IMG/VR virus record: IMGVR_UViG_3300029904_000005
Span: 1 to 64,000 of that record
Direction: 5' to 3' (one strand)
DNA: 64,000 nucleotides
DNA from: a virus
Shown: positions 4,090-51,600 of the stretch, piece by piece
Layout: each line of letters begins with the position of its first letter
Position numbering within the stretch: the first letter of the stretch is position 1
The notes under the pieces: model-generated
What the model was told of the DNA's origin: nothing
The model's input: only the letters and a program-made list of their open reading frames with translations
Databases searched by the model: none
Program-made: the position numbers and the translations under genes

Positions 4090-4115
4090 CAGTGTCAAAC
4101 ATTAAAACAGAAAAG

Positions 4116-16443: not shown

Positions 16444-16450
16444 ACTCTAT

Positions 16451-19050: not shown

Positions 19051-19959
19051 ATGAGTACCTTCTTCAGTGGTACAGATACTGCTACTCTGAAGGAAGAAGG
19101 CATAGACAGGAATCATTTTGTATCTCTGATTGTCAATAATGAGGGTACATATACAGCTGCCATTACAAGAAAGGTAAAAGCTGTAAAGACTATCACAGAA
19201 GATTTCTCCTATCCTACCTTTGAGGATGAGGAAATAACAGATACCAAGACCTATACAGTGGAAAGTGAGGAACTTGAGTGGTTTTATCTGAAGATTGAGT
19301 TTGAGAGCAGTTCCTTTCGTGAGGAACTTAAAGCAAGACTTGAGGAAATTAAGAATGTCAAAGCAGAGAAAGCCAGACAAAAGGCACTTAAGCAGCCTGT
19401 ATATGCTGGTGGGTATGGTAATTGGCAAAGTAGTAAGCCTCAGCAGGGTACTCTGTTCCCTGAAATTGGTAAGAAAGTAACACAATCATATATGGGACAA
19501 GCAGGTCCTGCCAATGAGGTTGTTAGAGAGGATAGTGACAGTTCCCTTTTTGATTATGACTATATTGATAATAAGATTTCAAATGATGTGCCTTATAATC
19601 ATGTAGAGTTCAATAAGGAAACTGTGAAATCACTTGTGCTTCAACTTGTTACAGGAAGTATTATTATACCTAATGCAAGTAAGATTGATGCTAGGAAATG
19701 GGCACAGGGTATGGTTCCTCTCTATGAAAGAAGATTTGGTAAAGGTAAGAAAGGAATGAAGTTGTTTGAGTCATGGGCTGAAGGTTATATTGAGTTCCTG
19801 TGTTGGTTCGCTGAGGATAGTGACCTTATAGAAATGGGACTGTGTGATGATGAGATTGCTGCAATATGTGCTTACAGTATAATCAAGGAACTTACCAAGT
19901 TGCCTGAAAATGTATATATTAAGAAGTATATTGATATTCTTAGAGGATATTTAATTTAA
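19051..19959 (+). CDS. hypothetical protein (302 aa)
   Basis: ORF track entry. The antisense ORF 19039..19485 was rejected. Confidence 0.75.
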   Translation: MSTFFSGTDTATLKEEGIDRNHFVSLIVNNEGTYTAAITRKVKAVKTITEDFSYPTFEDEEITDTKTYTVESEELEWFYLKIEFESSSFREELKARLEEIKNVKAEKARQKALKQPVYAGGYGNWQSSKPQQGTLFPEIGKKVTQSYMGQAGPANEVVREDSDSSLFDYDYIDNKISNDVPYNHVEFNKETVKSLVLQLVTGSIIIPNASKIDARKWAQGMVPLYERRFGKGKKGMKLFESWAEGYIEFLCWFAEDSDLIEMGLCDDEIAAICAYSIIKELTKLPENVYIKKYIDILRGYLI

Positions 19960-19969
19960 AGTAAATGAA

Positions 19970-21106
19970 ATGGAAGAATTAATGGATACAATATCTGATA
20001 GTGTAGAGCCTGCTGAGCCTATAACAGAGGAAACTACTCAAAATGTAATTGGGCCTGAAGCAATTGGTGTATCTTATGTAGATTCTACACAACTTGATAC
20101 AATACTTTTTGGTGTACATCATGGTCTCATTCCCTCTATTGAGCCTTATAGTGAGGCACCTTATACATATCAGCTGTCTTTTGGTAATGGTCATATTCTT
20201 TTCATCAATGACCATCAGTTCAGTATAATAGTTGAGGCAATAAGAAGGCATGAGAATGCAGCAACAGAACATATTGAACCTCTTCCTAACAGTGAACCTG
20301 ACAGTAGTCCTCTTTCAAAGGAAGAAGAGGAACTGTTGGCACAGGTAGTGGAGGAGGCACACAGTGAGATTCCTGTAAATTCAGATTCACTGCTTGTTGA
20401 TGAGTCTACTTCAAGATTCAGCTCTGCTATTTGGTATGAAGCAATTCAGAAGAAGACTATTCTACTTGCAGGTGTTGGTGGTATTGGTTCTTATGTAGGT
20501 TTTCTATTGGCAAGAATGAAGCCTGCTGCACTCTTTATTTATGACCCTGATATAGTTGAAACTGCTAATATGTCAGGCCAGTTATATAGTATGCATGATA
20601 TAGGAAATCACAAAGTAAGTGCTCTCTCAGGGATGATTAGTAGATATTGTGATTATGGCAGTACATTTGCAGTTCCTGAAAGATTTGATGAGACTAGTGA
20701 AGCTGCTGACATCATGATTTGTGGCTTTGACAATATGGCTGCAAGAAGGCTCTTCTTTAGTAAATGGCTAAATCATGTACAGAATAAACCTGCATCAGAA
20801 AGAGCTAATTGTCTGTATATAGATGGAAGACTGGCAGCAGAAGAGTTCCAAGTACTCTGTATTAAAGGAGATGATGAGTTCAATATCAACAGATATGGAA
20901 GGGAGTTCCTATTTTCTGATATAGAGGCAGATGCAACAGTATGTTCATATAAGCAGACTACATTCATGGCTAACATGATTGCATCTGTTATGGTCAATTT
21001 GTTTGTGAACTTTGTAGCAAATCAGAATAATCCTCTTATTGACAGAGACCTGCCATTCTATACTACATACAATGCAGAAACTATGTATTATAAAACTGAA
21101 GCATAA
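19970..21106 (+). CDS. ThiF/MoeB/E1-like adenylyltransferase with an N-terminal extension of about 150 aa
   Basis: Rossmann nucleotide-binding motif LLAGVGGIGSYVGFLL followed by E1-like core conservation. Confidence 0.7.
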   Translation: MEELMDTISDSVEPAEPITEETTQNVIGPEAIGVSYVDSTQLDTILFGVHHGLIPSIEPYSEAPYTYQLSFGNGHILFINDHQFSIIVEAIRRHENAATEHIEPLPNSEPDSSPLSKEEEELLAQVVEEAHSEIPVNSDSLLVDESTSRFSSAIWYEAIQKKTILLAGVGGIGSYVGFLLARMKPAALFIYDPDIVETANMSGQLYSMHDIGNHKVSALSGMISRYCDYGSTFAVPERFDETSEAADIMICGFDNMAARRLFFSKWLNHVQNKPASERANCLYIDGRLAAEEFQVLCIKGDDEFNINRYGREFLFSDIEADATVCSYKQTTFMANMIASVMVNLFVNFVANQNNPLIDRDLPFYTTYNAETMYYKTEA

Positions 21107-36359: not shown

Positions 36360-39300
36360 ATGGGAAATATAACATGTATTGCTCCTACTAAAGAGATAAC
36401 GGAACTGCATAAGGAAATTAATTCTAATATTCCACAAATATCATCTTCTACAGTATTCACAGAATCAAGAACCTCAAATTATCAGCAGAGAACCAAAGAG
36501 AATGCTGACTGGTCTGATGCAACTATTGCATTTGCAGTAGATTTTAATACTGCTGGAGAGAGACTTACCAAAAAAGTAGCTGGAGATAAATGGAATGGAA
36601 TAAAACTGATAGTATCTAATGATAATCTGTATTATTCAGAAGTAGAACTGGATGAGATAGCCAGAAGATATAAAGGGGAAAGTATAAAACTGAATATAGC
36701 GGGAAATGGATTATATACTTTTAATAAAAGTGGTATAACCCAAAGTAAGGTCAATGATGTCATTACTTCTGCTATAATATTTCTGCGTAGCAACAGAGTC
36801 AATATATCTGAGATAAGAAGTGGTGGTCAGACTGGAGTTGATGAAGCAGGCATCATAGCAGCACAGAGACTAGATATCCCAAGCAGTGTCCATGCTCCTA
36901 AGGGTTGGAGATTCAGAGGAGTTGATGGTATTGATATATCTAATGAACAGCAATTCAAGGAAAGATTCTCACAGTATGAGAAAACTGCGGAGGTATCAAT
37001 AGACCAGATACTTAACTACATAAGAGAGTTCTGTGTTGCAAAGAATATACCTCAGAAGTTCTGGTACAGATATAAGGATGAGGCTTTTGACTATGTAAGG
37101 AGCAGAGTGACTGGTGAGAATCCTGATGTAAAGCCTTTTGATGATATAGAGATGTCTGAACTTATACTGCAGGATATTGTTGATTACTTTAAGTCTGTAG
37201 TAAGAGAGTCTGATGATTTTAGAAATGACCATACTTATTATGTTATAGGTTCTGATGGCAGAGAGAGACCAGCTGATATATCTGTATCTACTTATGGAAA
37301 AAGAGACTTTAGGACATTTTCAGCTGAGGCTTATAGAAGAGAGCGTAAATACCATACTGATAGTCCTGCTATGGCTATAGGTAGAGCATTTGATACTATA
37401 ACAAGAGACTTCTTTAATGGAGAATTGAAGAAGAATTACTCTAACATGGATAATAATAGACTGGAAGGTGTAATCAAAGGTCTTGAAAAAGTAAAGAACT
37501 GGCTTGATAGGAAGTTTCCTGATGGATATAGAGTAATGGCTACTCCTTTTCCTATAGCAGCACAGCTTACTGACTATAAAGGAGAACCTTTTTCAGTAGC
37601 AGGAGAAATGGATTTGCTTGTTATAGACTCAAAGGGAAATCTTTATATATATGATATGAAGACAACCAGTAGAGGGCCTAAAGGTAAGACAACTGCAAAT
37701 GATATTATTGAGAGTAATAATGAGCTCAGCAGTGAATATTCAAATCAATTGTCCCTGTATTCCAAAATACTGAAAACTGCATTTCCTGAAAGAAGTGTAA
37801 GAGGTATGGGACTTATTATAGCGGATACAATATATCCTTCAGGAAGAATAGGAGAACTGTATTCACTTGATGCTGATGACCAGCTCTATGTTAATAATAG
37901 ACCTATACAGGACCTTGCCACATCAGAATATTCTATATCTATAAGACTTATTAATCAGAATTTTACTCCCGCAAGTGTTGAGACTTCCTCATCAGTTGCT
38001 CTACTGGAGTTTGAAAAACTCACTCCTGAGGAAAAAGAGGCTCTCTCTGATTCTCCTATAGGAGGAATGTTTTCATCTGAAGGTATGATGCAAGATGCTA
38101 TTGATATGGTTGAAGCTGAGACTATTACAGAAGAAGCTACATTACAGGATGTAGAAGATTCAATACCTGAGATATTACCTTCAATAAAGTATAAACTTGG
38201 AATAAGTCTTACTAAGATATTATCAAAGATAGTTGAGTTTCTTAGAACTGATGACTCTCTAAGAGCAGAGTTGTTCCCTTCTCTTAAAGAGAATTTCTTT
38301 ATAGGAAAGAGTGTCAATCAGATAGTAACTCCCAGTACACTGCCTGTTCTTATGAACTATGCAAAGGAGAACTATTTTCTAAGTCCTGACAATATTAACC
38401 CTGAGGCTCCTTTATATGTCAAGTCAGCACAGAAATGGATGAGAGGACATTTTAATGAACTACTTACAGCAGCACCCTCAAGATTACTTCATGAACTTGG
38501 AATATCTCCTGTATTCTCATCTGAGGAAAGTACTCAAGAAGGACCTGAGACTCTTTCTCAAGAAGAGGAGAGTGATAGGGAGGCATGGTCTTTTGATAAT
38601 AGAGAAATACCTGTTGAAAATAAGATGTCTGAAGTACTTAAACAATTACTCTCCACTCTTTATAAAATAGAATATACAGAGAAGATAGATACTGATGGCA
38701 ATCCTTATTGGGAAGCAGGAGATTACATCTTCAATGAATTTGGTGTAATTGAGTTTCTTGAGAGAGGTGAGGTAGTATTAGGGCTACTTGATGGTTTACA
38801 TACTGCTAAGACTGGAGAGGATATGATTGCCAGATTAAAGGATAGTAGACTTGTAACCAAATATCCTTGGTATCCCCAAATAGCACAGCTTCTTGAAAAT
38901 AATCCTGAGATACAAGCAGAGTTCTTTAAGATATTTCATACCAACAGAACTGAATATGTAAATACCTTTATAGATGAAACAGTTAAGTATGAGAAGGGAA
39001 AGACTGTAACTAAAATAGATGTCAGAAAAAATAATCTTATAGAATATCAACAGAAACTTAAGATATTAGGAGACTTTAAGAAGAATGTACTAGCAGGTGA
39101 TTCAGAGGTATTCAAAATAGTTGACTCATCAGGTCTTGGTCTTGTAAGGACAGATGTAAATACTGTAAGAAGTATATTTGACAGGCTGGATAAAATAGGA
39201 CATGCCAATAGAAGAAGAGACAGAAGAGACAATATAGAAACTATCTCTGATGTTCTTAAGAGTATAGGATTTGGAGATTATTATGCTGTACTGTCATCTA

Positions 39301-42300
39301 TGCCTTATAAACAGGCTACTCTTATAGTAGGACTTATCAGAGACTTGCTTACCAGTGCTAATGGAAGAAAAGGCACAGTCTATGTTCCTTGGAATAAAGA
39401 TGAGCTTCTTAATAAGAGAAAGCAGGATACTATGGCAATGCTGATTAACTTCCTTAAGACTGCTGTTCCTGTTAGTGTCTCAACCTCTACAGTATACAGT
39501 AATGGTAAGAATTATCAGGTATATACAGCTCCATCAGCTCTGGGTAATCTTATTGAATGGATGTCAGACTCTTATTATGATGATGGAGGAGAGGGATTTG
39601 AGAGATATGTAAGGTCTTTTATTGATAATAAGTATGGCAAATCAAGACAGACTTGTTTCAATCCTGAAATACTTCCCAGCAGTGATGGTGTAAGAAAATT
39701 ACAATTTGTAAGTTCTTGGCTTCAGAAGATTTATGATAATCCATCAAGAGCAAGAGTACTTAAGCATCTGGTAGAAACATCAGGACTTGGAAGTCAATAT
39801 AAAGATATGAATTTGTACAAGTATCCTCTTGCCTCTTTGGTACAATATTTTACTGCAGGTAAATCTGGAGACAATGTATATATAGATTATGCTAACTACT
39901 ATGTTCCTGTAATGTCAGATAAGAACTCATCAGAGTATATCACATTTGAGAAATATCCTTTTAGGAGAAATCCTACCTCAGCTAAGGAGGCAATTGCAGA
40001 AGATGCTACTCAAATTATACTGTATGAGATAATAAGGATGAGAGATGTGTTTAGGACAAGTATTGATAATACTCCTAAGATTGATGTGTACTCATCTGAT
40101 ATTCCATCAAGTATAATTGATAAGCTGAAAGCTGGCAAGACTCTTGTAAAAAGCGATATAGTATCTAAAGGTGAATTGAAATCCTTTATGAGAACAGGTG
40201 GAGCAGGTTTTAACTTCTTCCCTGCTCTTAATAATGAATTTGTTGCAAATACTGATTTTGCAAAGTTTATTCTTAAGTATATCAGTGGAAAGATTGATAT
40301 GGATGCAACTGATGAAAGAAGTAGGTCTGTAATATATAACTTGGCCAAAGATGCTTTTATGAGATTCATGGAAAGTGACTTTCATAATTCATTTCTTCCA
40401 ATGATGGATTCTGTAGGAGTAACAGCCAGAACTGACTTGCTAAGTAGTGAACTGACAGGATTTACTGATATTACTGAAGCTCTTGGGGAGTTTTATTGGA
40501 ACAGTACTCTTGCATCAGCTAACATATTTGCAATGACTATTATAGACCCTGCATTCTATAATGGAGCAGTACAGGTGCAGAAAAGATTTGCACAGGTACA
40601 TGCTATGACTGACAGAGTTGATATTACTGCTAAATTTACTGATAGAGATGGTATAGTAAGAAGACTGTCTGATGGCCAGCATAGGTTCATAATAATTGAT
40701 GATGTTCATGCTGCATCTGACAGTATAGACATTATAAGTAGATTTTATGATAAGAAAATAGCAGATACATCTGATAATAAGAGGAAAGATTTCTTAAAAT
40801 CACAGAAAGAGACAGCTATAAAAATGCTTAGTGATATAAAGTTTACTGATGGTCAAGCTATTACTTCAATAGATGGTTATTTTAAGAAGACAGGTATGCT
40901 TGGTGTATTGACACCTTCCTTTAAGGAGTCCTATTATAGAATACTTGATGGAGATTTCTTAAACAGTGACCTTCAGCAGGTGTTCAGTGTAATAAAGCCT
41001 TTCACATTCTCTTGGGAGAATATATCTTCTGATGAAACTCCTTTCTATGTTCCATTACAGGTAAAGGACAGTGAGTATGTTCTCATGATGCTTCCTGCAA
41101 TGGTAGACAACCTAAAGAAAAATGGAGTACTTGGAGAGGATAATCTTCTTGCAAACCTGTTTGACTTCATGCATCAGTCAGCATATGACAATGATGAGTG
41201 GAATGGAAGGGGAGTAGATACTATAGTATTCGCGTCTGCAGTAAAGGGAGGAGCATCTAATGTGTTAAGTCAGGAGAAACTTAAAGAGATACTTGACAAT
41301 GACCCTGAGGAATTATGGGACTATGTACATCTGCATGACTTTTATGATTGGGGCAAACAGCAGGAAACACCTGACCACCTACAGGACCATGAGCAGGCAA
41401 TGCCCTCACAGACAAGAGTACTTATACCTGCTAAGATTGACAGGGAATCTGCAGTCATATATCAGGGAAAAAGAGTTAATGCAGGTGAGGTAATAGATAG
41501 ATATAATTCTGCTATTGCTGATGATATGAGACAGGGAATAGAGGATGTTGTCAGTATGTTTTCTCTTGAAAAAAGTAGATTGCAAAGAAATAAGAGCATG
41601 TCTGAGTTCCAGAAGAATAATCTTCTTAGGGACAGTAGGTCAACTGGAGAGGAATATAGAGCTGTATCATTAAGAAATGGAGAGTTCAATGTCCCTCTTG
41701 GAGACCCCATAAATATGGAGAAGTATGTAAGCAATACCCTTTCAGCAGTCAAGAAAGCTGTAAACAAGCAGCTTATTCCTGGAGGTCCTACAGTCCAGGT
41801 ATCTCCTTATGGCTATAATATGCCTAAAGTAGTCTTTGGAGATAATGGGGAGCTTAAGTACTTTGAGGTATATGTTACATTTCCATCCTCAGTTCTTGAG
41901 AGAAAGATGACTCCTACTCCTGAAGATAAAGTATGGAAAAGACTTAGTGCTGCTGAACAGAGGGATGCCCAGCTTGGACTTCCTCTCAGTGTGGCAAGAG
42001 GTCTTGAACTTAAGCTCATATCTGAGGATGACTTAAAGGCTATTGCATCAAGGATTCCTGTAGAGGAGAAGTATTCAATCTGGCCTATGAGGATAGCAGC
42101 TTTTCTTCCTAGAGTGATGGGAGAATATGCTATTATTCCTCCTGAGATTGTAGTGCTGTCTGGAGGGGACTTTGATATTGATAAAATTTATATTGAGTTG
42201 AAGTACACAAAGTCTAAAGAGGATGGGATGAATGATAGACAGATATTAAAGAATGATATTGTTGATATGCAATTCTCTCTTCTTACATCTGAGGATGCAG

Positions 42301-44531
42301 CTATATCACTCTTTACTCCTCAGGATGTATCCCCTTTAAAGAGGATAGCTGAAAAAGTAAATCCTTCTTATAAGAATGTTCCATATGCTATCACACAACC
42401 TCAAGGACAGTTCTATTTCCAGAACCAGAATATGATTGGTAAGGATATGGTGGCTATATCAGCTTCAACAAATGCTGCTCATGCTATGGGAACTATGACA
42501 CAAGTAGGAATAGCACTCCCAAATATATTATTTAATGGAGTTTCTTTAAGAGATTTAGGAGAGAATGGATTTACAAGACTTGACCCTACAGTATCTCCTT
42601 TTGACAGCAGTACAGTAGGAAGAACATCAGGAATGTTTGTAGGAGCATCAGCTGATAATGCAAAAGACCCTGTTGATGCAGCTGTAGGGTACCAGAAAAA
42701 GACAGCAAACTTCTATACAGGACTTATTAGACTTGGACTTTCTGCTGAAACAGTATCACTGCTTCTTAATCAGAAAGTAGTACTGGATGTAGTGAGAAAT
42801 GCAGAGTTGTCTGATTCTTCATTTGATAGTGCTCTAGAGGAAGCTGTAAACAGTACAGCTGAAGAATTAGGAATACTTCCTGAGACTATATTTGCAGTAT
42901 CTGATGGTATGGACTTCTCTGATGAATGGCTGCTTAAACAACTTAGGAATCCTGATAAAAACTCACAGGATAAGATACTGTTCTCTCTATATGCTCTAAA
43001 GGAGTCTATGGATGTTATATTTAGAATATCAGACCTTTATAAACTTAATTCTACACAGAATGCCGTAGGACCTAATGCTTGGAAGACATTAAGGAATATG
43101 GTTAAGTTGAATGAAATCAGCAGGGATATGAGTGACAAGGACAGTCCTATGTCCATACTTGCCCCTGATGCAGTAATGTCAATCTATGATAATCTGCCTT
43201 TCATACCTGAGTTGAAGAAAGTGTATGATGAGCTGGTACCTGAGCTGATGGGAAACTATTTCCCTGCATTCAGTGAGGTATATATAGGCCTTCTTCAGTT
43301 TATGTCCAACATGGGATTCAGTATAGGAAGAATGAGTGACAAAGATATGAGAACATTGTTTAAGGAGTTCACTGTGTATTATGGTACAGGAAACTTTGAA
43401 GGACAGACTCTTATTGACGGCTCTTTAAGAAACAGACAAAGATTGTTATATGAGCTTCCTTTCAATATTCTTAAGAAGAGAAGTAATCTACTCAGGTTTC
43501 CTATAATGTCAGCTCTTGAGTTTAAGAGCAGGGCCAGTAGGAAAGTTAATCTACCCTCACTTAGTATAGATACTTCAACTATGTCACCTATTGAGAAAGA
43601 TATGCTGTCAGCCTCATGGTGGGGACTTATGAATCCTATGGCAAGAACATATAATCAGACTAAATCTACAGCTGTAGACTTATTTGAGTATAATATATTC
43701 AGGTCAGGTTTTTATTTCTCACCTACAGGATTTGTTAACCTTGCCCCCAATATTATAAAGAACAGTTATAATAATGGAGCATACAGGAAACTCTCAGATG
43801 CTTCTTACTGGACAGGAAAGCTGTCTCCAGAGGATTATTATAATTTCCTACAACAATATGCAAGGAATCATCCTTATGGAAAGTTTGTACATGAGTGTTC
43901 AAAGAGAGAGCTGATTGAGACAAAGTATGGAGTGCAGGCAGCTGAGGGAGTCACTATACCTTCAAATACCGTACTGCTTAAAGTAGGGAAAGAACTGTAT
44001 GTAAGACTGTCCAAGAACAGTGATACATTTGTACCTACTACTAGACTTGGTTTTGATAATCAGGGATTTGAATATGACAGGCTGACAAATGGAGCAAAGA
44101 TGAGAACTGCAAGGTCAAATGAGGTCTATAAGAAGGTTGCAGGAGACTATCAGCAATATCTTGAGAGCATACATGAGCTGACAGAAGAAGAAAGTGTTGA
44201 GGATGAGTCTATTGACAGCAGCAGGTCAGTTCCTGAAGAGCCTGAATCCTTCTCACCTGATGTTAAGACAAGAAATAGTCTTCAGAAAATGGGAAGTGTA
44301 TCATTCAGTGAAGATAAGAGCCTCAGGAATACTATTGATACAATATTAAGTGATTCTGAGGTAAGACAATGGATTGCTACACTACCATCTGATAGGACTG
44401 ATGCTCTCTGGGAGGATAATGATAATCTTGTTAAGGATACATTACTGAGTCTTGCTGAGGATAATATGAGTGAGGAACAGTTCAAAAATGTAAAGAATAA
44501 AGTTAAAGAATCATTAAAAGGATATTGTTAA
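36360..44531 (+). CDS. giant multidomain virion protein (2723 aa); candidate crAss-like virion RNA polymerase with extra N-terminal domains
   Basis: GGDFDIDK at about aa 1937 recalls the DxDxD catalytic motif of two-barrel RNAPs. N-terminal SGGQTGVDEAGIIAAQRL is a DprA/SLOG-like motif (about aa 154). GEMDLLVIDSKGNLYIYDMKTT is PD-(D/E)XK-like (about aa 417-438). Confidence 0.5.
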   Translation: MGNITCIAPTKEITELHKEINSNIPQISSSTVFTESRTSNYQQRTKENADWSDATIAFAVDFNTAGERLTKKVAGDKWNGIKLIVSNDNLYYSEVELDEIARRYKGESIKLNIAGNGLYTFNKSGITQSKVNDVITSAIIFLRSNRVNISEIRSGGQTGVDEAGIIAAQRLDIPSSVHAPKGWRFRGVDGIDISNEQQFKERFSQYEKTAEVSIDQILNYIREFCVAKNIPQKFWYRYKDEAFDYVRSRVTGENPDVKPFDDIEMSELILQDIVDYFKSVVRESDDFRNDHTYYVIGSDGRERPADISVSTYGKRDFRTFSAEAYRRERKYHTDSPAMAIGRAFDTITRDFFNGELKKNYSNMDNNRLEGVIKGLEKVKNWLDRKFPDGYRVMATPFPIAAQLTDYKGEPFSVAGEMDLLVIDSKGNLYIYDMKTTSRGPKGKTTANDIIESNNELSSEYSNQLSLYSKILKTAFPERSVRGMGLIIADTIYPSGRIGELYSLDADDQLYVNNRPIQDLATSEYSISIRLINQNFTPASVETSSSVALLEFEKLTPEEKEALSDSPIGGMFSSEGMMQDAIDMVEAETITEEATLQDVEDSIPEILPSIKYKLGISLTKILSKIVEFLRTDDSLRAELFPSLKENFFIGKSVNQIVTPSTLPVLMNYAKENYFLSPDNINPEAPLYVKSAQKWMRGHFNELLTAAPSRLLHELGISPVFSSEESTQEGPETLSQEEESDREAWSFDNREIPVENKMSEVLKQLLSTLYKIEYTEKIDTDGNPYWEAGDYIFNEFGVIEFLERGEVVLGLLDGLHTAKTGEDMIARLKDSRLVTKYPWYPQIAQLLENNPEIQAEFFKIFHTNRTEYVNTFIDETVKYEKGKTVTKIDVRKNNLIEYQQKLKILGDFKKNVLAGDSEVFKIVDSSGLGLVRTDVNTVRSIFDRLDKIGHANRRRDRRDNIETISDVLKSIGFGDYYAVLSSMPYKQATLIVGLIRDLLTSANGRKGTVYVPWNKDELLNKRKQDTMAMLINFLKTAVPVSVSTSTVYSNGKNYQVYTAPSALGNLIEWMSDSYYDDGGEGFERYVRSFIDNKYGKSRQTCFNPEILPSSDGVRKLQFVSSWLQKIYDNPSRARVLKHLVETSGLGSQYKDMNLYKYPLASLVQYFTAGKSGDNVYIDYANYYVPVMSDKNSSEYITFEKYPFRRNPTSAKEAIAEDATQIILYEIIRMRDVFRTSIDNTPKIDVYSSDIPSSIIDKLKAGKTLVKSDIVSKGELKSFMRTGGAGFNFFPALNNEFVANTDFAKFILKYISGKIDMDATDERSRSVIYNLAKDAFMRFMESDFHNSFLPMMDSVGVTARTDLLSSELTGFTDITEALGEFYWNSTLASANIFAMTIIDPAFYNGAVQVQKRFAQVHAMTDRVDITAKFTDRDGIVRRLSDGQHRFIIIDDVHAASDSIDIISRFYDKKIADTSDNKRKDFLKSQKETAIKMLSDIKFTDGQAITSIDGYFKKTGMLGVLTPSFKESYYRILDGDFLNSDLQQVFSVIKPFTFSWENISSDETPFYVPLQVKDSEYVLMMLPAMVDNLKKNGVLGEDNLLANLFDFMHQSAYDNDEWNGRGVDTIVFASAVKGGASNVLSQEKLKEILDNDPEELWDYVHLHDFYDWGKQQETPDHLQDHEQAMPSQTRVLIPAKIDRESAVIYQGKRVNAGEVIDRYNSAIADDMRQGIEDVVSMFSLEKSRLQRNKSMSEFQKNNLLRDSRSTGEEYRAVSLRNGEFNVPLGDPINMEKYVSNTLSAVKKAVNKQLIPGGPTVQVSPYGYNMPKVVFGDNGELKYFEVYVTFPSSVLERKMTPTPEDKVWKRLSAAEQRDAQLGLPLSVARGLELKLISEDDLKAIASRIPVEEKYSIWPMRIAAFLPRVMGEYAIIPPEIVVLSGGDFDIDKIYIELKYTKSKEDGMNDRQILKNDIVDMQFSLLTSEDAAISLFTPQDVSPLKRIAEKVNPSYKNVPYAITQPQGQFYFQNQNMIGKDMVAISASTNAAHAMGTMTQVGIALPNILFNGVSLRDLGENGFTRLDPTVSPFDSSTVGRTSGMFVGASADNAKDPVDAAVGYQKKTANFYTGLIRLGLSAETVSLLLNQKVVLDVVRNAELSDSSFDSALEEAVNSTAEELGILPETIFAVSDGMDFSDEWLLKQLRNPDKNSQDKILFSLYALKESMDVIFRISDLYKLNSTQNAVGPNAWKTLRNMVKLNEISRDMSDKDSPMSILAPDAVMSIYDNLPFIPELKKVYDELVPELMGNYFPAFSEVYIGLLQFMSNMGFSIGRMSDKDMRTLFKEFTVYYGTGNFEGQTLIDGSLRNRQRLLYELPFNILKKRSNLLRFPIMSALEFKSRASRKVNLPSLSIDTSTMSPIEKDMLSASWWGLMNPMARTYNQTKSTAVDLFEYNIFRSGFYFSPTGFVNLAPNIIKNSYNNGAYRKLSDASYWTGKLSPEDYYNFLQQYARNHPYGKFVHECSKRELIETKYGVQAAEGVTIPSNTVLLKVGKELYVRLSKNSDTFVPTTRLGFDNQGFEYDRLTNGAKMRTARSNEVYKKVAGDYQQYLESIHELTEEESVEDESIDSSRSVPEEPESFSPDVKTRNSLQKMGSVSFSEDKSLRNTIDTILSDSEVRQWIATLPSDRTDALWEDNDNLVKDTLLSLAEDNMSEEQFKNVKNKVKESLKGYC

Positions 44532-47500
44532 TGAATACTAGTTGTGTATGGATTCCACAGAAAAATGGAAAACCAAGTAAATTATTTACTGACCTTATGC
44601 GTATTACAGAGAACAGGGAGAAAGCCAAGGAGCTTTACTCCCTTGTCTCTATACCTGAGGTACAGGAGGCTATAGGACTAAAGGAAAAAGACTCTCTTAA
44701 TGAGCCTGTTATAACTGAAGTACTGGAGAAAGTAGGCAACCCCCGGATTTTTCTGGGGGATAATGCCTATAAAAAGTATGTTACAGAGAAAGAAAATCTT
44801 GATAGATTATATTCTGACTTTGATGAGGCTTATAACAGACTTAAGAGCCTTATAACAAATTATCAGGACTATGCTTTCAGTATAGTACCTGATGGCAATA
44901 GCTTTAGAATAGCTATGGAGGATAAGGCTACAGGTATAAGAGGAATGAGGCATACTGTATTTAATGGAGAACTGCAAAACCGTCTTCTTAGTATATTAAG
45001 GTCATTGGGCTTTGATGTAAAGACTGACTCTACTGTTGGAAATACAAACAGATTCTCTCCTCTTACAGCACAGAAGAATGCTGATAATCTAAGAGAAGTC
45101 ATAAGAATAGCTAAAGGACAAAAAGGAGAAGAGGCTTTTCCTGAAGAGTTTGCACATGTGATGATTGAAGGACTTCAAAGACATCCTCTTGTAAGGAGGA
45201 TATTGGATATGATGTCTGATAAAGAGACTGTCCAGTCAGTACTTGGAGAAGACTATGAAAGATATAGACAGTTATATAATGGAAATGAGGAGATGCTGAA
45301 AAAAGAGGCTGCAGGAAAGGTTCTTGCTCAGTCTATAATAAATAAATCCTCTATACCTATTGTAGATAGAGTCTATAAAGTATCTCTTGAAAGATTCTCA
45401 AGAGCTGATGCCACAAAGATAGCTGAAGCTATAGTAGCAGCTGAAGATGCAGCTGACTCATTAGTTGATGCTTTTGATGAATCTGATACCTATGCTTATT
45501 TCAGCAGGGAAGATGTAATAAGTGGAAATGGTCTTAGCAGTCTGTCAAAGGAAGTAAAAGAGCTGGAAGAAGCTGCTGTAGCTGCCTATGATACACTTAC
45601 AAGAAAAATGAGAATCTCCTCTGCCAGAAGTAAAGTAAGAAGACCTGACTCAAGAGAAAACAGGGCACTTGCTGACATGAGAGACAGAATGCAGAAGAAA
45701 GATTATGCTGGAAGTATTTATTCTGCTCTTACTTATGTATTGGATGATGTAGAGGAGCTGTATGGTAGAATAAAGGATTTTAATGAACAGTATAAAACAG
45801 AAGGAAGATTTAAAGCAGGTAGAATAAATCAGTCCTTTAAACTTCTCAGAAGAGTTGCTGACTCACTTAATGCCTACTCTGATGTAGTAGGGAGGCTTGC
45901 TGCTATAAGAGATATGCCTAATATACAGGATGCTCTTGATGAAGGAGATATAAGTGAGATAGAAGATAAAGCAGTACAGATAACAGCTGTATGCAATAAT
46001 TTAAAAAGAGTATATGAGAACTCACGAAGAAATACCATATTTGAGTTTTTCAGAGGATGGTTGGGAGATGAGAGGATAACAGGAAGGGATGGTACAGGAG
46101 TAAATATAAATGAGATACTTGACCAAGCTCCTCATGATGTGACAGACTTGGCAAGACTGTTCAATTCTATGGAGGACTCTTCTGACTCACTGCTTGTTAT
46201 TCTAGATAATATACTAAAGAAAGTACTGCATGTAAGAGACAGGAAGACTGTAGAGATATCCCGTACTATAAAGGCCATACAGCATAATTATTATAATGAA
46301 AGTGGCAGCAGAGATACATCATTTATGTATGAGAGAGATTCTGAAGGTAAGCTTACAGGAATGATTATCTCTGATATAGACCATGCTAAGTACTATAAAG
46401 AAAGAAAAGAGTATATATTGATGTTAAGAGACAGAGGGGTAAGCGAAGATGAAATCTCCGCTAATCTTGAAACTTGGACTCTCAATCATACTAAACTTGT
46501 ACAGAACAAACTTGGTAAGAAAGAAAGAATACCAAGACAGGATATGTATCCTTCTGACAATCTGAAAAAGTTAAATACAGCTCAAAGAAAGTACTATGAT
46601 GCAATGATGGAAGTGAAACAGTGGAGTGACTCTATGCTTCCATCAAAGTATATGAGAACTTATAGAGCACCTATGAAAAGGGCCTCTACTGCTGATGCTG
46701 TTATGACTGCCTCATCAACCAGGCAGGCTGTACAACAATTAAAAGGCTCCTTTAGAAATGCGTGGGTCAGGACAGTAGATGATACTGAGTATGGTGCTTT
46801 AGGAGAATCTGCTATAGATGTAGAGACAGGAGAACTTACAGATGTTGTAAAAGCAAGAAGTGTACTTCTTGATTTTGCAGGAAATCCTGTAGCTAGGATT
46901 CCTTTGCCATATACCTCAAGACTTGATGATATGTCAGCTTTAAGTACTAATTTCACTGACAGTATTCTGGCCTATGCTGCTATGTCTGTAAACTATAATG
47001 AGATATCAAGAATAGCTGATGCTATGGAAGTTATTAAAAGTTATGTGGCAGATAGAGATGTAGTTCAGACTACAGGAGCAAGTAAGTTGATTGAACAGAA
47101 GAAGAACTTTGAAGGAAAGAGGGAAAGCACTCCTGTAATTAAAAAAGGATTTGATTCAAAAATCTATAAAACTCTTGAAGGGTATATAAATAGGAATATA
47201 TATGGAAGAACAAAGAATGAGGATAGAGTATATATAGGAAATAAGGAGATAAATGCAGGAAAAGTACTTGATAATTTTAAATGGTACACCACACTGCTTG
47301 GAATGGGTTATAATATATTCTCATTTGGTTCTAATGTAACTATGGGAAATGCTCAGCTTTTATTGGAGGCACTTAGTGGAAGATGGGATAAAACCACATT
47401 TAATCTTAAGGATTTAGCTAAGGGTGTTGCATTCTATACAAAACATACTACAGGAGTATTTGCAGATAGATACAGAGATATAAAGAGAGATAAGTTGTCA

Positions 47501-48535
47501 CTTCTGTTAAGAGAGTTTGACCCTGAGGAAGAGATTTATAGAGGACTGTTAAATGATAATACTGCACAAGGTGTAGTTAAGAGAAGTATGTCATTATTGA
47601 CTCCTCTGCAAGGTATGTCAGCAGGAGAGCATTATCTTCATTCAGTAATCATGGCTGCATATCTCAATCATATAAAAGTTAAGGTTGGAGATAAAACCAT
47701 GTCACTTCTTGATGCCTATACTACAGAAGAAGTAGAAATTGGAAAAGGCATGACTGACACTATACTTAAGCTTCCTGAAGGAATTGAATTTGTAGATGGT
47801 AATAAGATAACTGACGAATCTCTCTTTGATATAAAAAGAAGGATACAGGTAATATCTCACAAAATAAATGGTGCTTATAGTGATATAGATAAAGGTCAGA
47901 TAAACAATAGTGTGTATGGAAGACTCCTTATGCAGTATAGACAATGGATGCCTGCCTTTTATATGAGTAGATTTAAATCATCAAGGTATAATGCTGTTAC
48001 TGACAGAATGGAGGAAGGCTACTATAGAACTATGGGAAAATTCATGCTTCAGCTGCTTAAAGATATAGGAGACTTAAAGTTTACATTCTTTACCAGATTT
48101 AAACAACTGTCACCATATCAGAAGGCTAATATAATGAAGAGTATATATGAGCTTAGTTTATTTGGTTTATTAAGTCTACTTCTTAGATTTGGCGGAGAAC
48201 CTGATGATGAGGATACTTATGCACTTAACTATCTGAGGTATATGGCTTATAGATTAAGACTTGAATTAGGTAGTGGTGCTCCATCTCTAGCTTTCTTTGA
48301 GAATTTAGGAACTCTGGTACAAAGTCCTGTGCCTGCTATGGAGAAGATGGAATATATAGTTAATATATTTAATTTTGGAGATATAGGCCAGACTATTGAG
48401 ACAGGAAAATACGCAGGATGGAATAAGTATCTAAGAAATGTCTACTTTGCTCTACCTTTTGCAAGAAATATAGGAAGAGCTGTAGAACTAGGGCAGGGAC
48501 ATTTTGATATGTTCAATCCTTATATAAAAGATTAA
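44525..48535 (+). CDS. large virion-associated protein (1336 aa)
   Basis: Overlaps the giant ORF stop. No recognisable motif. Confidence 0.8.
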   Translation: MLMNTSCVWIPQKNGKPSKLFTDLMRITENREKAKELYSLVSIPEVQEAIGLKEKDSLNEPVITEVLEKVGNPRIFLGDNAYKKYVTEKENLDRLYSDFDEAYNRLKSLITNYQDYAFSIVPDGNSFRIAMEDKATGIRGMRHTVFNGELQNRLLSILRSLGFDVKTDSTVGNTNRFSPLTAQKNADNLREVIRIAKGQKGEEAFPEEFAHVMIEGLQRHPLVRRILDMMSDKETVQSVLGEDYERYRQLYNGNEEMLKKEAAGKVLAQSIINKSSIPIVDRVYKVSLERFSRADATKIAEAIVAAEDAADSLVDAFDESDTYAYFSREDVISGNGLSSLSKEVKELEEAAVAAYDTLTRKMRISSARSKVRRPDSRENRALADMRDRMQKKDYAGSIYSALTYVLDDVEELYGRIKDFNEQYKTEGRFKAGRINQSFKLLRRVADSLNAYSDVVGRLAAIRDMPNIQDALDEGDISEIEDKAVQITAVCNNLKRVYENSRRNTIFEFFRGWLGDERITGRDGTGVNINEILDQAPHDVTDLARLFNSMEDSSDSLLVILDNILKKVLHVRDRKTVEISRTIKAIQHNYYNESGSRDTSFMYERDSEGKLTGMIISDIDHAKYYKERKEYILMLRDRGVSEDEISANLETWTLNHTKLVQNKLGKKERIPRQDMYPSDNLKKLNTAQRKYYDAMMEVKQWSDSMLPSKYMRTYRAPMKRASTADAVMTASSTRQAVQQLKGSFRNAWVRTVDDTEYGALGESAIDVETGELTDVVKARSVLLDFAGNPVARIPLPYTSRLDDMSALSTNFTDSILAYAAMSVNYNEISRIADAMEVIKSYVADRDVVQTTGASKLIEQKKNFEGKRESTPVIKKGFDSKIYKTLEGYINRNIYGRTKNEDRVYIGNKEINAGKVLDNFKWYTTLLGMGYNIFSFGSNVTMGNAQLLLEALSGRWDKTTFNLKDLAKGVAFYTKHTTGVFADRYRDIKRDKLSLLLREFDPEEEIYRGLLNDNTAQGVVKRSMSLLTPLQGMSAGEHYLHSVIMAAYLNHIKVKVGDKTMSLLDAYTTEEVEIGKGMTDTILKLPEGIEFVDGNKITDESLFDIKRRIQVISHKINGAYSDIDKGQINNSVYGRLLMQYRQWMPAFYMSRFKSSRYNAVTDRMEEGYYRTMGKFMLQLLKDIGDLKFTFFTRFKQLSPYQKANIMKSIYELSLFGLLSLLLRFGGEPDDEDTYALNYLRYMAYRLRLELGSGAPSLAFFENLGTLVQSPVPAMEKMEYIVNIFNFGDIGQTIETGKYAGWNKYLRNVYFALPFARNIGRAVELGQGHFDMFNPYIKD

Positions 48536-48615: not shown

Positions 48616-51600
48616 TTAAAACGGCATACAAGCCCCTGTTTCTACCATATATCTGTAAGTCTCTTCTATAGAGTGAGTTTTAGCAAAATCCTCTATGAAC
48701 TCCCATGCACCTTTAGCATTTTCAAGATTCTCTACCAGCTCATCATTATCTACATTTGATAGAGTACTAAGTGCAGCTTTACAAAACTGTTCATAAGTTA
48801 TACTTGTCCCTTCAGTAGGAATGTTACTTACAGCCTTTTTTGTGGGTATTCTACTTGCAACAGGCTTATTGGTTACTTTTTTATCAGCCACTTTCTTAAC
48901 ATTTTTCTCTTGTTTAGCCTCAGGCTTTCCTTCTTCTGCTCCTGTAGGTGTGGAGAGTCCAAGAACAGAGTCAAATAATCCTTTTCCTTTAGGCTTTGGA
49001 ATAGAGGGTTTCTTGGTACTTGGAGCAGAAACTGAGGTAGGATTTTCTGTACTCTCTGACTCAGATTTTACTCTATTTCCTGTCTTAATATCAACTTGAA
49101 CCCATTCTATTAAACCTTTTTCCTGTATAACATTATCTTTTATTATAGCTTCCTTCCTAATTACAGGAATAAACCCTTTCTCAGGAGAGCCTATATAATC
49201 AAACAGTGTAGGGAAAGTCTGCTCTTCTTTAAACATTGATGTAAGAACTCCTCTAACAGAATAATCAGGAACAATAATAGTAGTACCATCATCCTTTTTA
49301 TATCCCTTAAGAGGGTCAAGTTCAGAATAGGTTGCAGACTTAACATACTCCCCAGAGTTATTTACTCGGATAGATATATCAGGAGTATCCTTATGATGTG
49401 TTTTTCCAAACTTAACTGCTGCAATATAGTTATTTCCAATTCTATATCTTATAGTCTCATCTTTCTTAGTACCTCTTCCCTTTCTATCTGCTTGCCATTC
49501 ATGTATTTCACTATCTGTCATTTTCCTAAGATTAGTACCATCAAGTAGATAGAACTCAAACAGGTTAGACATAGGATTCAGTACTTCATAAATAGGATTA
49601 TTCTTATTTTTAAACCAATATCTTGACTGGGCCATATTCCTAACTATATCAGAGTAAAGCTCAACAAGTATTATCTGCATAGGGTCTGTAACCTGCTTTC
49701 TACTACTGTCAAGATATTTACCACTATCAGAAGTCTTATAGAAAGTCTCCCCATTTATAGTAAACTTATCTGATGACTTGTCCTTTTGGAATCCTTTGAA
49801 TCCTGAATGTACTGAAATAGTCTTACCAGCCTCAGATTCAATCATACTCCATGTACCATCATCATGTATCTCTATCTGGTTTATTATATATGAACTATTA
49901 ACATTCTGTACTCTTGCAAGGTCTGTCTTAAGCATATCAGATGCTATAAGGTCCTCCTTACTCCATATATCATGAAAAGATATATTAAATGTATAACCAG
50001 CATCATATATAAGTCTTAACAAATCATCCTCTGCATTTACAGAAGTAAGGTCAGATGTCCCTCTACTATTGGCTGTCTTAGCTATTTTAGTATCTACATC
50101 TATAATGAGTTTCTTATTCTCGGGTATCTGTAGATACTGCCTGAGTGTATGCAGTGCATTCTTAACAGCATTAAGGTCTTCTTTTCTAGCAGCTGAGACA
50201 ATATCTGAGACAATAGCTTTTATTCTCTTCACTACAGGAGCATTAGTATGAGAGCCTGAAGGATATTCCTCTACATTGAATTTCTTAGGACTCACATATT
50301 TATGAGTAATCTGTCCATTAGATTCCAATACTCTCATCCATACAGTCCCTGCTCTATTAGAAGTTATTCCATGAGGATTATAAGAATTAAGAGGTATTAA
50401 TCTACCTGGCAAATCAGCACCTATAGTATAAGTATCTCCCATTCTTGTCTGTACACAGAACTGAACCATAGAAGAATCTACATTCCCTTCCTTATCTCTA
50501 GGCATAATATCAAGCAGGTTCTTATCAGCATCAGCATTAGGATAATTTTCATCAGCCTTAACCATTCTACCTGTATATGCAAATACTATATTAGAATAGT
50601 ATGGCAGTATAAATCCTGCACCTTTACCTGACCCAACTTCCTCTATAGTCTTTGAAGCATAAGCCCCTCCTGTATGGATGGCTGTATCAAAAAACTTTTG
50701 CCAAGACTCTTCTGTTTTGCTTGTTTTATTAACAGCTCCTAATACATGAGCATGATATGTATTTCCTGCAGCATCCTTTAATATAAGAGGCCCTTTTTCA
50801 TCCTCAATTACTGCAAGAATTGTATTTAGAGAATCATGGGTAGCCTTTCCTGTATCAGGGTCAAGAACAAGAACTCTTGCAAAATTCACAGTAAGAGGTT
50901 GTCCCTTACTCTCTCTTTCATTTTTCCACTCGGCAAACCCTCCGGATTGTAACCACTCTTCTTCTCCAAGGATTCTCATAAGCCTTCCTACAAAAGAATT
51001 AGATGAGTTATCTATAGCTCTGTGATTCTCTTTTAATTCCTTTATATTATATAAGGTACCATATCTTCCTATTTGAAAAGCATCTTCATCACCATAATAT
51101 TCTCCATATCCTCTAGGCTCACTCTCAGCATAGTTGTCTCTTTGTCTTTTTCCTGCACCTCTTATCCAAAGATTGTCAGTTTTTCTATTAGTTTTAGCTT
51201 TCTTTGATTCAGCAGCACCATTACTTATACCACCTTCAACAGCCTCATCAGATGTTACTATTTTTCCTGATGTTGTTGAAGATTCCTCAGGCTTTGACTT
51301 TGGTTTATAAGGATTACTGGGACTGAGCTTTCCTGCATCATCCTGTCTTAATGCCTCTCTAAGGTCATCATCAGAGTAATTATGATAGTCAGGAGCTAAG
51401 TCTTCAAAAGTATATCCCTCAACTTTTGTTATACCTTTTACTTTTCTTGTTTCTACTTTTCTACCCTCAGCAGTTTTAATGAGTTCTTCTCTTGTCTTAT
51501 CATCATAGCTGTCATCCTCATCACTTTCATGAGGGTCAGATTCTTCTACTGAATCTTCTTGATTGGCAGTACCTTTTGAAAACAAGCCTCCCTTTGCCTG

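Follow-up and report, generated by a model that had tools for sequence, protein, structure and literature searches.

No viruses of the human gut are more abundant than the crAss-like phages, and the first minutes of their takeover of the host are poorly understood. The locus considered here raises the question of what a single giant protein of such a phage might bring to those minutes. Working from motifs, the initial annotation of the window (a 64,000-nt stretch of IMG/VR virus record IMGVR_UViG_3300029904_000005) had proposed that a 2723-codon open reading frame encodes a candidate virion RNA polymerase with SLOG/DprA-like and PD-(D/E)XK-like modules fused to its N-terminus. Below we consider the identity of the polymerase, the nature of the two modules, and the ways in which they recur in related phages.

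The polymerase and its gene neighbourhood

The features on which this part of the argument depends are the following.

36360..44531, + strand: gene of the giant protein, complete in the ORF list and translation (2723 aa), with homology to the virion RNA polymerase (crAss001 gp50 / phi14:2 gp66)
38562..44039, + strand: body of the RNA polymerase (aa ~735-2560), with homology to crAss001 gp50 and phi14:2 gp66
42168..42182, + strand: DFDID, putative catalytic metal-binding Asp triad, aa 1937-1941, aligned to phi14:2 DFDID 1361-1365
44531..48535, + strand: gp49-like gene, 1334 aa, also called in the public contig; phmmer E=1.2e-111 to crAss001 gp49; Cys5
48616..54189, - strand: convergent gp47-like gene, 1857 aa; phmmer E=1.9e-29 to crAss001 gp47; Cys1854, the fourth residue from the end

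The giant gene opens with an ATG and encodes a product of ~308 kDa, and five public contigs of 50-200 kb encode a 2723-aa protein identical to it. The reading frame and the three quoted motifs were all recovered where the initial annotation had placed them, with SGGQTGVDEAGIIAAQRL running from aa 154, GEMDLLVIDSKGNLYIYDMKTT from aa 415 and GGDFDIDK from aa 1935. By themselves, the motifs do not exceed chance: DFDID is the sole DxDxD in the protein, where a chain this long and this rich in Asp would be expected to hold ~1.1, and there are 31 occurrences of D-x(8-20)-[DE]-x-K. We treat DFDID, the SGGQTG loop and the D...DxK signature as real sites on the strength of homology and structure, and not of the motifs themselves.

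Sequence comparisons show that the giant is the ortholog of the characterised crAss-like virion RNA polymerase, and the polymerase proposal was thereby borne out. A profile built from 15 orthologs, with phi14:2 left out, matched the phi14:2 virion RNA polymerase (PDB 6VR4_A) with E=2.3e-66 and 227 bits over chain residues 239-2103. BLASTP against crAss001 gp50 gave E=1e-73, with the alignment beginning at giant aa 735 (the polymerase body itself may start closer to aa 600), and a direct pairwise BLASTP against the phi14:2 polymerase gave E=1e-11 and placed the two DFDID sites opposite each other (GGDFDIDKIYIEL / GSDFDIDKMYVML). In the alignment of the 15 orthologs, D1937, F1938, D1939 and D1941 are invariant. 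Single-sequence phmmer searches of the PDB with the giant, a 1336-aa protein and the 1857-aa gp47-like protein returned nothing useful, and the family profile was needed to reach 6VR4. Because the giant is homologous to this solved structure, a double-psi barrel is predicted around aa 1900-2000; the active site of the single polypeptide would be built from a pair of double-psi beta-barrels, with DFDID as its metal site.

The gene order is that of crAss001: ThyX, a vWA protein, a 208-aa protein, the giant, the gp49-like gene, the convergent gp47-like gene, cargo 2, cargo 1 and the muzzle. The stop codon of the giant and the start of the gp49-like gene overlap (TAATG). As in the window, a gp49-like gene follows phi14:2 gp66 (PDB 6VR4; locus tag Phi14:2_gp077, 2180 aa), whose DFDIDK is identical to and aligned with that of the giant, but gp66 carries neither SLOG nor nuclease, is 543 aa shorter and has a pairwise identity of only ~24%. 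Similarly, crAss001 gp50, a virion protein of 2412 aa labelled 'putative RNA polymerase', is an ortholog in the same neighbourhood that lacks any accessory module. BLASTP of the window's gp47-like protein covers only aa 54-841 of crAss001 gp47, and the protein has no nuclease module and no HExxH. Mass spectrometry of crAss001 virions has found gp47, gp49 and gp50 in them (PMC10172136), and the database record of the phi14:2 ortholog annotates it as a structural protein on the basis of MS/MS proteomics.

Two modules behind a short leader

The N-terminal region resolves into two folded modules, with a connector between them and a linker leading to the polymerase body.

36447..36959, + strand: SLOG-superfamily domain, aa 30-200, assigned to the circularly permuted YpsA (cpYpsA) family; its Gly-rich loops are NIAGNG (~aa 112-117) and SGGQTGVDEAG (aa 154-164)
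36960..37196, + strand: helical connector between SLOG and nuclease, aa 201-279, from AF2 secondary structure (pLDDT 50-73); kept in the closest relatives only
37197..37964, + strand: RecB-family PD-(D/E)XK nuclease domain, aa 280-535, without cysteines
37392-37394 (D345), 37611-37613 (D418), 37653-37655 (D432), 37659-37661 (K434), 37746-37748 (Q463) and 37758-37760 (Y467), + strand: predicted catalytic residues
37992..38159, + strand: acidic linker, probably flexible, aa 545-600, from composition and pLDDT <55 at aa 535-553

For the first module, the superfamily half of the SLOG/DprA-like label held, and the DprA/LOG half did not. PF12694 (cpYpsA) matches aa 26-204 with 45.7 bits against a curated cut-off of 26.2, is the sole family matched in Pfam, and encloses the SGGQTG loop; neither the DprA nor the LOG family matched the giant in Pfam scans at E<=0.01, and any likeness to them is at the superfamily level only. 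The Gly-rich loops are conserved in the alignment of relatives, with G164 invariant, and the domain is predicted to adopt a Rossmannoid alpha/beta fold like that of the solved cpYpsA structure (PDB 3IMK); Foldseek with the two-domain N-terminal model gave generic Rossmann-like matches only. The module thus has its family and fold in common with the cpYpsA or 'putative molybdenum carrier' proteins (PF12694; PDB 3IMK), and is 38-40% identical to the ICP1 cpYpsA protein encoded beside helA. The free-standing cpYpsA proteins of ICP1, Vibrio and Pseudomonas phages are stand-alone products of ~160-180 aa, whereas that of the giant is one module of a 308-kDa protein. To our knowledge, no cpYpsA domain has a known substrate or ligand. 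Homologs of the domain are fused to ART-PolyVal, NADAR, ADP-ribosylglycohydrolase, DUF4326 or an SF1 helicase, and viral YpsA-like SLOG domains with such fusions have been described as part of an NAD+/ADPr network (PMC9503650).

The second module, flagged earlier as PD-(D/E)XK-like, proved to have a true RecB-family nuclease fold on the combined evidence of Pfam, conservation among 149 relatives and predicted structure. Pfam PDDEXK_1, whose cut-off is 22, scores 23.4 bits on a 560-aa fragment but 20.5 bits when the whole protein is scanned, and matches the nuclease segments of 31 of the 34 relatives in the N-terminal alignment, with a best E of 1.1e-7. All elements of the expected residue layout are present: the first core helix supplies its acidic residue (D345), strand 2 its D (D418), strand 3 the (D/E)xK (D432-x-K434) and the helix after it the QxxxY (Q463-x3-Y467). 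These residues are kept in 143-148 of the 149 relatives, with D418, D432 and K434 each kept in 148. The predicted structure recovers the PD-(D/E)XK fold, its nearest neighbours being AddA, Dna2, AdnAB, RecE and lambda exonuclease, so that the Rossmannoid and nuclease folds anticipated from the N-terminal motifs both form in the models. The best match of the N-terminal alignment profile in the PDB was human Exo5, with the catalytic motifs aligned at an E (0.12) that is not significant alone. The four-Cys Fe-S cluster of the Cas4, AddB, Dna2 and Exo5 subgroup is absent, with zero cysteines between aa 226 and 1098, and on this ground we liken the nuclease to the cluster-free type represented by AddA, RecB, RecE and MGME1. 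Judged by its sequence, then, the module belongs to the RecB/AddA/Cas4 branch and has an intact putative active site.

Matches to the relatives P0068-P0071 start at giant aa ~205 and therefore cover the connector as well. Over aa 546-640, a stretch overlapping the acidic linker, there are 21 D/E and 8 K/R.

Recurrence, relocation and possible roles of the modules

A homolog search with aa 200-560 gave no match, and an exhaustive search of representative proteins did find relatives, placing the nuclease module in 191 of them. A polymerase core with DFD[IV]D lies beside the nuclease in 58 of the best 149 of these 191, and nuclease and polymerase are combined in at least 58 protein clusters at 50% identity. 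The nuclease HMM also matches crAss001 gp47 at aa 1573-1905 (E=2.7e-44), with no match in the window's 1857-aa gp47 ortholog or in the three phi14:2 giants. Across 80 IMG/VR loci, the module is found in 39 of 46 gp47-like ORFs versus 2 of 78 polymerase ORFs. The nuclease thus changes places between the polymerase and gp47-like proteins, and some lineages pair it with SLOG. SLOG again adjoins the nuclease in P0075, P0076, P0184, P0134, P0170, P0001 and P0010.

The SLOG module, by contrast, is an accessory that turns up sporadically and behaves like a cassette. An illustrative case is that of crAss001 gp50 and PhiCrAssBcn1_13 (2608 aa), which are 98% identical and differ by a 196-aa SLOG insertion located after the first ~80 residues, the leader included. 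The inserted cpYpsA SLOG domain is 49% identical to that of the giant and occupies the same site behind the leader; neither protein has a nuclease on the polymerase chain, and in crAss001 the nuclease is found on gp47 instead. SLOG-polymerase fusions are thus present in cultured Kehishuvirus isolates, and a search of the literature for SLOG together with a crAss RNA polymerase found none.

In light of these counts, the initial description of the protein as a distinctive domain fusion appears overstated: at least 58 clusters join nuclease and polymerase, Kehishuvirus joins SLOG and polymerase, and Yutin et al. 2021 had already reported PDDEXK domains in crAss-like 'large proteins associated with transcription' (PMC7886860). 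Since both additions recur in related phages, the fusion is best regarded as a variant on a known theme. The PD-(D/E)XK domain described there likewise sits in a transcription-block giant, but without family assignment, active-site analysis or fold; the placement in the RecB/AddA/Cas4 branch, the relocation between gp47 and polymerase and the pairing with SLOG in some lineages go beyond that report.

A broader parallel is provided by the polyvalent proteins, virion-delivered giants that, like the one studied here, join an early-function core to varied effector domains, and which include N4-like virion RNA polymerases with fused domains of the ART, peptidase, lysozyme and RNase types (Iyer et al. 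2017, PMC5512222). In the window, SLOG, nuclease and polymerase lie on one chain beside cargo and muzzle genes, and ART-PolyVal, a domain named after the polyvalent class, is carried by two of the giant's relatives, P0001 and the cr116_1 polymerase. Two differences should be noted: the N4 polymerase is of the T7-like single-subunit kind whereas the giant's family is a two-barrel enzyme, and the usual processing partner of polyvalent proteins, a fused zincin peptidase, is missing from the window giants. The zincin motif HExxH, present in crAss001 gp47 at residue 2157, is absent from all three of them, so that the idea of a fused protease setting the modules free finds no support and was rejected. 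Two annotation labels in related genomes were also set aside: the 'Exonuclease V' label of the cr118_1 giant, considered as a nuclease precedent, corresponds in Pfam to a C-terminal RecD-like SF1 helicase, and the 'DprA-like' label of the cr113_1 giant received no confirmation from Pfam, with only an SGGAVGSD motif visible. The cr113_1 giant gene contains 73 in-frame TAG codons.

Building on these domain identities, folds, conserved active-site residues, orthology and module mobility, we consider it probable that the giant is a virion RNA polymerase with inserted SLOG and nuclease modules, which is injected and whose modules are active early. By analogy with phi14:2 gp66 and crAss001 gp50, the giant would be packed in the capsid, pass through the tail at infection and transcribe the early genes. 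Two self-contained enzymatic modules would be inserted behind the short leader and tied to the polymerase body by the acidic linker. Travelling with an injected protein, both would be in the host cytoplasm before any phage gene is expressed, most likely as early effectors delivered with the polymerase. The crAss cargo giants almost always carry the nuclease, on gp47 in crAss001 and on the polymerase here, and it most likely cuts DNA early, be it host DNA or DNA-based defences. The fusion of SLOG relatives to NADAR, ADP-ribosylglycohydrolase and ART suggests that the SLOG domain most likely binds or cleaves immune signals derived from NAD+ or ADP-ribose. The injected polymerase would then double as a carrier of swappable enzymes, and the well-conserved RecB-type nuclease and SLOG could be tested for a part in early host takeover or in anti-defence, for which crAss001- and PhiCrAssBcn1-type isolates, set apart by the SLOG cassette, offer a natural comparison.

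A different and rather unlikely arrangement is that SLOG and nuclease form one ligand-gated unit, in which a nucleotide second messenger (a cADPR isomer or another NAD+-derived signal) switches the nuclease; the CARF-plus-PD-(D/E)XK nucleases Can1, Can2 and Card1 supply the model. The two occur separately in most relatives and hence need not work jointly.

It is improbable, in our assessment, that the nuclease serves transcription or genome handling, whether by resecting or nicking incoming phage DNA (to expose an ssDNA template or entry site for the virion polymerase) or by processing ends. Such a role would agree with the near-universal presence of the module in gut crAss-like transcription-block giants (as in the gp47-like counts above), with the almost constant retention of its catalytic residues, which suits a core function over an arms-race accessory, and with nearest folds that are all end-resecting enzymes. 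However, the phi14:2 polymerase is active although all three giants of that phage lack the module, which makes the nuclease dispensable for polymerase function as such; we found no tie between the nuclease and the phage's own DNA; and a module that moves among cargo proteins need not be physically on the polymerase.

That the N-terminal modules are catalytically dead adaptors for capsid cargo packing or tail threading is very improbable: the N4 virion RNA polymerase does use its N-terminal region for injection and its C-terminal region for encapsidation (PMC5512222), and conservation is seen at the extreme ends of the crAss protein, but it is seen as well in the six nuclease residues and the Gly-rich SLOG loops, and modules that are present or absent between near-identical polymerases are not essential structural parts.

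Cysteines at the termini of the cargo giants

The two ends of the giant carry a further conserved feature.

36360..36446, + strand: N-terminal leader with Cys6, aa 1-29, conserved among orthologs
44040..44528, + strand: acidic C-terminal tail with Cys2723 as last residue, aa 2561-2723, 34 D/E vs 21 K/R

The giant has 5 cysteines in 2723 residues, C6 and C2723 among them. A cysteine lies within the first 10 residues in 40 of 41 full-length orthologs, whose overall Cys frequency is 0.4%, and in 64 of 73 proteins from the IMG/VR loci; within the last 8 residues, the counts are 40 of 41 and 70 of 75. Together, the three giant cargo proteins show the pattern gp47…C, C…RNAP…C and C…gp49, the gp47-like protein keeping a cysteine at its C-terminus alone and the gp49-like protein at its N-terminus alone. 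As a control, we counted a C-terminal cysteine in 24 of 43 'other' ORFs of >=700 aa across the 80 loci, a class that is not clean and probably contains divergent, unclassified gp47-like proteins.

One possible interpretation, which we advance tentatively, is that the giant forms the middle link of a gp47-polymerase-gp49 chain tethered end to end by disulfides or a shared metal site. If so, the three proteins would be present in the capsid in equal numbers and would pass through the tail in order, like a thread; cross-links of this kind, if real, would help to explain the packing of several 150-300 kDa proteins and their ejection through so narrow a tail. A literature search for terminal cysteines in crAss cargo proteins found none. 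In the giant, the leader precedes the modules, the same layout as in crAss001/PhiCrAssBcn1, where SLOG lies downstream of the Cys leader; an insertion at that point would leave the tether intact in both. Across the 5398 residues of the three phi14:2 giants there are 4 cysteines in all, each no more than 3 residues from a terminus; those of the phi14:2 polymerase are C3 and the penultimate residue, compared with C6 and the last residue in the giant.

Identity and genomic setting of the giant polymerase

The initial annotation had read an ORF at 36360-44531 (+) as a giant protein, proposed as a candidate virion RNA polymerase with N-terminal SLOG/DprA-like and PD-(D/E)XK-like modules. The ORF is real: it opens with ATG and encodes 2723 aa (about 308 kDa), and gene calls on five public contigs in the 50-200 kb range, including one of 97 kb, give the identical protein. 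We located the three motifs originally quoted for it at aa 154, 415, and 1935. By themselves such motifs carry little weight; DFDID is the sole DxDxD in the giant, whose size and Asp content would yield about 1.1 by chance, and which contains 31 instances of the D…(D/E)xK pattern. The functional status of these particular occurrences is shown by tests of homology, family membership, and conservation.

Searched with tblastn against 50,697 phage records, aa ~735-2540 of the giant match crAss-like phages only, including crAss001 gp50 (annotated 'putative RNA polymerase') and a 2180-aa structural protein of Cellulophaga phage phi14:2, which is the 'DNA-dependent RNA polymerase' of PDB 6VR4. A profile of 15 orthologs, from which phi14:2 was purposely left out, matches 6VR4 chain A over chain residues 239-2103 (E=2.3e-66). 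Pairwise alignment places GGDFDIDKIYIEL of the giant opposite GSDFDIDKMYVML (residues 1359-1371 of the phi14:2 protein), and D1937, F1938, D1939, and D1941 are invariant across the 15 orthologs. Because of this profile match and the aligned, invariant DFDID motif, we identify the giant as a virion RNA polymerase ortholog, as had been proposed, and infer its double-psi barrels from homology. The phi14:2 protein record is annotated as structural from proteomics; the crAss001 cargo giants gp47, gp49, and gp50 have been detected in virions by mass spectrometry (PMC10172136), and the enzyme family acts in early transcription after injection, as summarized in PMC7886860.

Other crAss polymerases are decorated with an ART-PolyVal domain (cr116_1) or a RecD-like helicase (cr118_1); the label 'exonuclease V' on cr118_1 reflects that helicase and no nuclease. 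In the uncultured phage cr116_1 (L003, 4101-14966), a small inserted gene splits the polymerase gene just past the DFDID region, leaving an upstream piece of 2507 aa, which bears ART-PolyVal at its N-terminus, and a separate ORF of 833 aa for the C-terminal part. The polymerase giant of another uncultured phage, cr113_1 gp38 (L008; 4328 aa), contains 73 in-frame TAG codons and therefore points to stop-codon reassignment; its GenBank label 'DprA-like' was not confirmed by Pfam.

The window derives from a crAss-like phage. The order ThyX, vWA protein, 208-aa protein, giant, ~1335-aa protein, convergent giant is that of crAss001 gp54 to gp47, and the 1334-aa protein downstream of the polymerase is the gp49 ortholog (E=1.2e-111).

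Features of the window outside the polymerase gene
1519-1603, +, tRNA-Arg(TCT) gene in the plus-strand arm
4092-5525, +, Ro60/TROVE protein with Ro60 vWA domain (Pfam E=5e-14; PHROG 'RNA-binding protein' E=2.7e-33)
5563-5635, +, tRNA-Lys(TTT), after the Ro60/TROVE gene
5990-6064, +, weak tRNA-like element after tRNA-Lys(TTT) (Rfam 34.1 bits; no ARAGORN call)
17950-18209, +, group I intron between ORFs 16412-17743 and 19051-19959 (Rfam 66.4 bits, E=1.2e-14)
18164-18898, -, 244-aa ORF overlapping the intron (PHROG endonuclease family, E=4.5e-35)
19970-21106, +, ThiF/E1-like family protein in the replication arm (Pfam E=2.4e-15)
Plus-strand arm, replication genes: family A DNA polymerase, ribonucleotide reductase, Toprim primase, SNF2 helicase, ThyX
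48616-54189, -, convergent gp47 ortholog, 1857 aa (E=1.9e-29)
From 54 kb onward, -, crassvirus cargo protein 2, cargo protein 1, and muzzle protein genes (Pfam models; muzzle E=7e-218)

The Ro60/TROVE gene may encode a phage Ro60 that has its Y-RNA-like partner in the weak tRNA-like element, and the 244-aa ORF opposite the group I intron is probably a homing endonuclease.

The nuclease module and its carriers

The nuclease module (aa 280-535) scores close to the 22-bit cut-off of Pfam PDDEXK_1, just below it when the whole giant is scanned (20.5 bits) and above it for a 560-aa fragment (23.4 bits); the nuclease segments of 31 of the 34 relatives in our alignment match the same family, with a best E-value of 1.1e-7. 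An exhaustive search with aa 200-560 against 1.84 billion representative proteins yielded 191 relatives, including 81 with E≤1e-10. Conservation among the best 149 of these is near complete at D345 (146), D418, D432, and K434 (148 each), Q463 (143), and Y467 (147), which together make up the RecB-type nuclease motifs, QxxxY helix included. The PD-(D/E)XK-like assignment is thus supported by both the retained motifs and the family matches, and judging by these residues the active site looks intact. Since the domain contains no cysteine, it belongs with the cluster-free AddA/RecB/RecE type, which has no Fe-S cluster.

It had been suggested that such a combination of domains would be a distinctive fusion, a view that did not hold up. 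At least 58 of the best 149 nuclease relatives also hold the DFD[IV]D-bearing polymerase core, the nuclease lying N-terminal to the core in nearly all of them. Several separate clusters likewise have SLOG and nuclease directly adjacent, with either one coming first, and one partial relative (P0001) carries ART-PolyVal, an HExxH motif, SLOG, and nuclease in series. PDDEXK domains in giants of the crAss transcription block were, moreover, previously reported by Yutin et al. (PMC7886860). The fusion varies a known theme by position and is no new kind of system.

What varies is the carrier. The nuclease-family HMM matches crAss001 gp47 (L009, 6120-13145) at aa 1573-1905 (E=2.7e-44), and finds no match in the window gp47 ortholog or in the three phi14:2 giants. 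The window ortholog is ~480 aa shorter than crAss001 gp47, aligns only to gp47 residues 54-841, and lacks the HExxH motif present at residue 2157 of crAss001 gp47. Across 80 IMG/VR loci retrieved via the polymerase, the nuclease occurs in 39 of 46 gp47-like ORFs versus only 2 of 78 polymerase ORFs. A further ~2500-aa family, kin to the p-crAssphage 'RNAP associated protein fused to zincin protease' (KP06_gp45), carries it C-terminally. On these comparisons, the nuclease is a near-constant passenger of crAss cargo giants whose host polypeptide varies, and in the window phage it has moved to the polymerase. We consider new both the definition of this nuclease at the level of fold and active site and its shift between gp47 and the polymerase.

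Within the KP06_gp45-homologous proteins, P0087 and 22 related proteins (about 2450-2800 aa) have the same nuclease at aa ~2100-2500 and end in a conserved …NELNYxC(x) motif.

The SLOG module and proposed roles

The SLOG module (aa 30-200) matches a single Pfam family, cpYpsA (PF12694; 45.7 bits, cut-off 26.2), formerly named 'molybdenum cofactor carrier'. Pfam scans of the module gave no match to DprA or LOG, so that the SLOG half of the SLOG/DprA-like label stands and the family becomes cpYpsA; with this correction, all three domain assignments of the initial annotation are supported by homology, Pfam, and conservation. The module also matches PHROG 10774 (E=5.5e-34). Stand-alone homologs occur in ICP1 (adjoining helA), other Vibrio phages, and Pseudomonas phages, and metagenomic homologs are fused to ART-PolyVal, NADAR, ADP-ribosylglycohydrolase, DUF488, DUF4326, and SF1 helicase domains. 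It was on these partners that Iyer and colleagues drew in proposing, for viral YpsA-like SLOG domains, a role in sensing or degrading immune signals derived from NAD+/ADP-ribose (PMC9503650).

The module is rarer than the nuclease (4 of 78 polymerase ORFs in the IMG/VR loci). crAss001 gp50 (L002, 6234-13472) and its 2608-aa SLOG-bearing variant PhiCrAssBcn1_13 (L001, 5793-13619) are 98% identical once the 196-aa SLOG insertion that follows residue ~80 is set aside; at the protein level, an LSPxFExP / LSNAFDTP repeat stretch flanks the insertion. Because of this repeat-flanked insertion between near-identical polymerases, the SLOG module seems to behave like a mobile cassette, a property we likewise consider new.

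The best-supported reading is that the giant would be an injected polymerase doubling as a carrier, in the sense of 'polyvalent proteins', a term used for phage head proteins, N4-like virion RNAPs among them (PMC5512222). On that reading the two modules would enter the cytoplasm of the host before phage genes are first expressed. There the nuclease would serve an early core task, probably the cutting of DNA, the candidate targets being the DNA of the host, a defence element, and the phage's own ends; its near-universality and strict active-site conservation argue for such a task, and since phi14:2 is without the module, the nuclease is no part of the polymerase mechanism itself. For the SLOG module, the sporadic, cassette-like distribution and NAD+/ADPr-linked relatives would fit a counter-defence role. 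It is possible that SLOG and nuclease instead form one ligand-gated nuclease, like CARF-nuclease proteins, a reading weakened by the mostly independent occurrence of the two. Release of the modules by cleavage finds no support, since none of the window's three giants has a fused zincin protease.

Cysteines at the termini of the cargo giants

The window polymerase has only five cysteines in 2723 residues, among them residue 6 and the final residue, and its neighbours also carry terminal cysteines.

Terminal cysteine codons in the window
36375-36377, +, polymerase Cys6
44526-44528, +, polymerase Cys2723 (final residue)
44543-44545, +, gp49-like Cys5
In gene 48616-54189, -, gp47-like Cys1854 of 1857

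In 40 of 41 full-length polymerase orthologs, sampled from 50%-identity clusters, a cysteine falls within the first ten residues, and in 40 one falls within the last eight; at their overall Cys frequency of 0.4%, chance would give ~0.04 and ~0.03 per protein, respectively. Orthologs of gp49 have cysteine near the N-terminus only (the sole Cys is residue 5 in crAss001 gp49 and 3 in phi14:2 gp076), and those of gp47 near the C-terminus only (the sole Cys is 2339 of 2341 in crAss001 gp47 and the last residue in its phi14:2 ortholog, gp078). Apart from these ends, the three cargo giants contain hardly any cysteine; the phi14:2 trio has 4 Cys in 5398 aa, all ≤3 residues from a terminus. In the 80 IMG/VR loci, many of which are closely related and for which the 'other ORF' control was not clean, terminal cysteines are found in polymerases (64/73 N-end, 70/75 C-end), gp49-like proteins (68/70 N-terminal, 0/68 C-terminal), and gp47-like proteins (46/46 C-terminal, 0/4 N-terminal). 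The pattern was noted in the window and in L002, L004, L009, and L011-L090.

Written out as gp47…C, C…polymerase…C, C…gp49, the pattern follows the gene order of phi14:2. Many inter-protein disulfides are present in crAss001 virions (PMC10172136); our search of the searchable literature found no mention of cysteines at cargo termini, and we consider the pattern new. It suggests, as one reading, end-to-end tethering of gp47, polymerase, and gp49 for packing and ordered ejection. Such tethering, if true, would account for the position of the SLOG cassette in crAss001/PhiCrAssBcn1, which follows the N-terminal region and does not occupy the extreme N-terminus; in the window giant, the modules likewise sit behind an N-terminal region.
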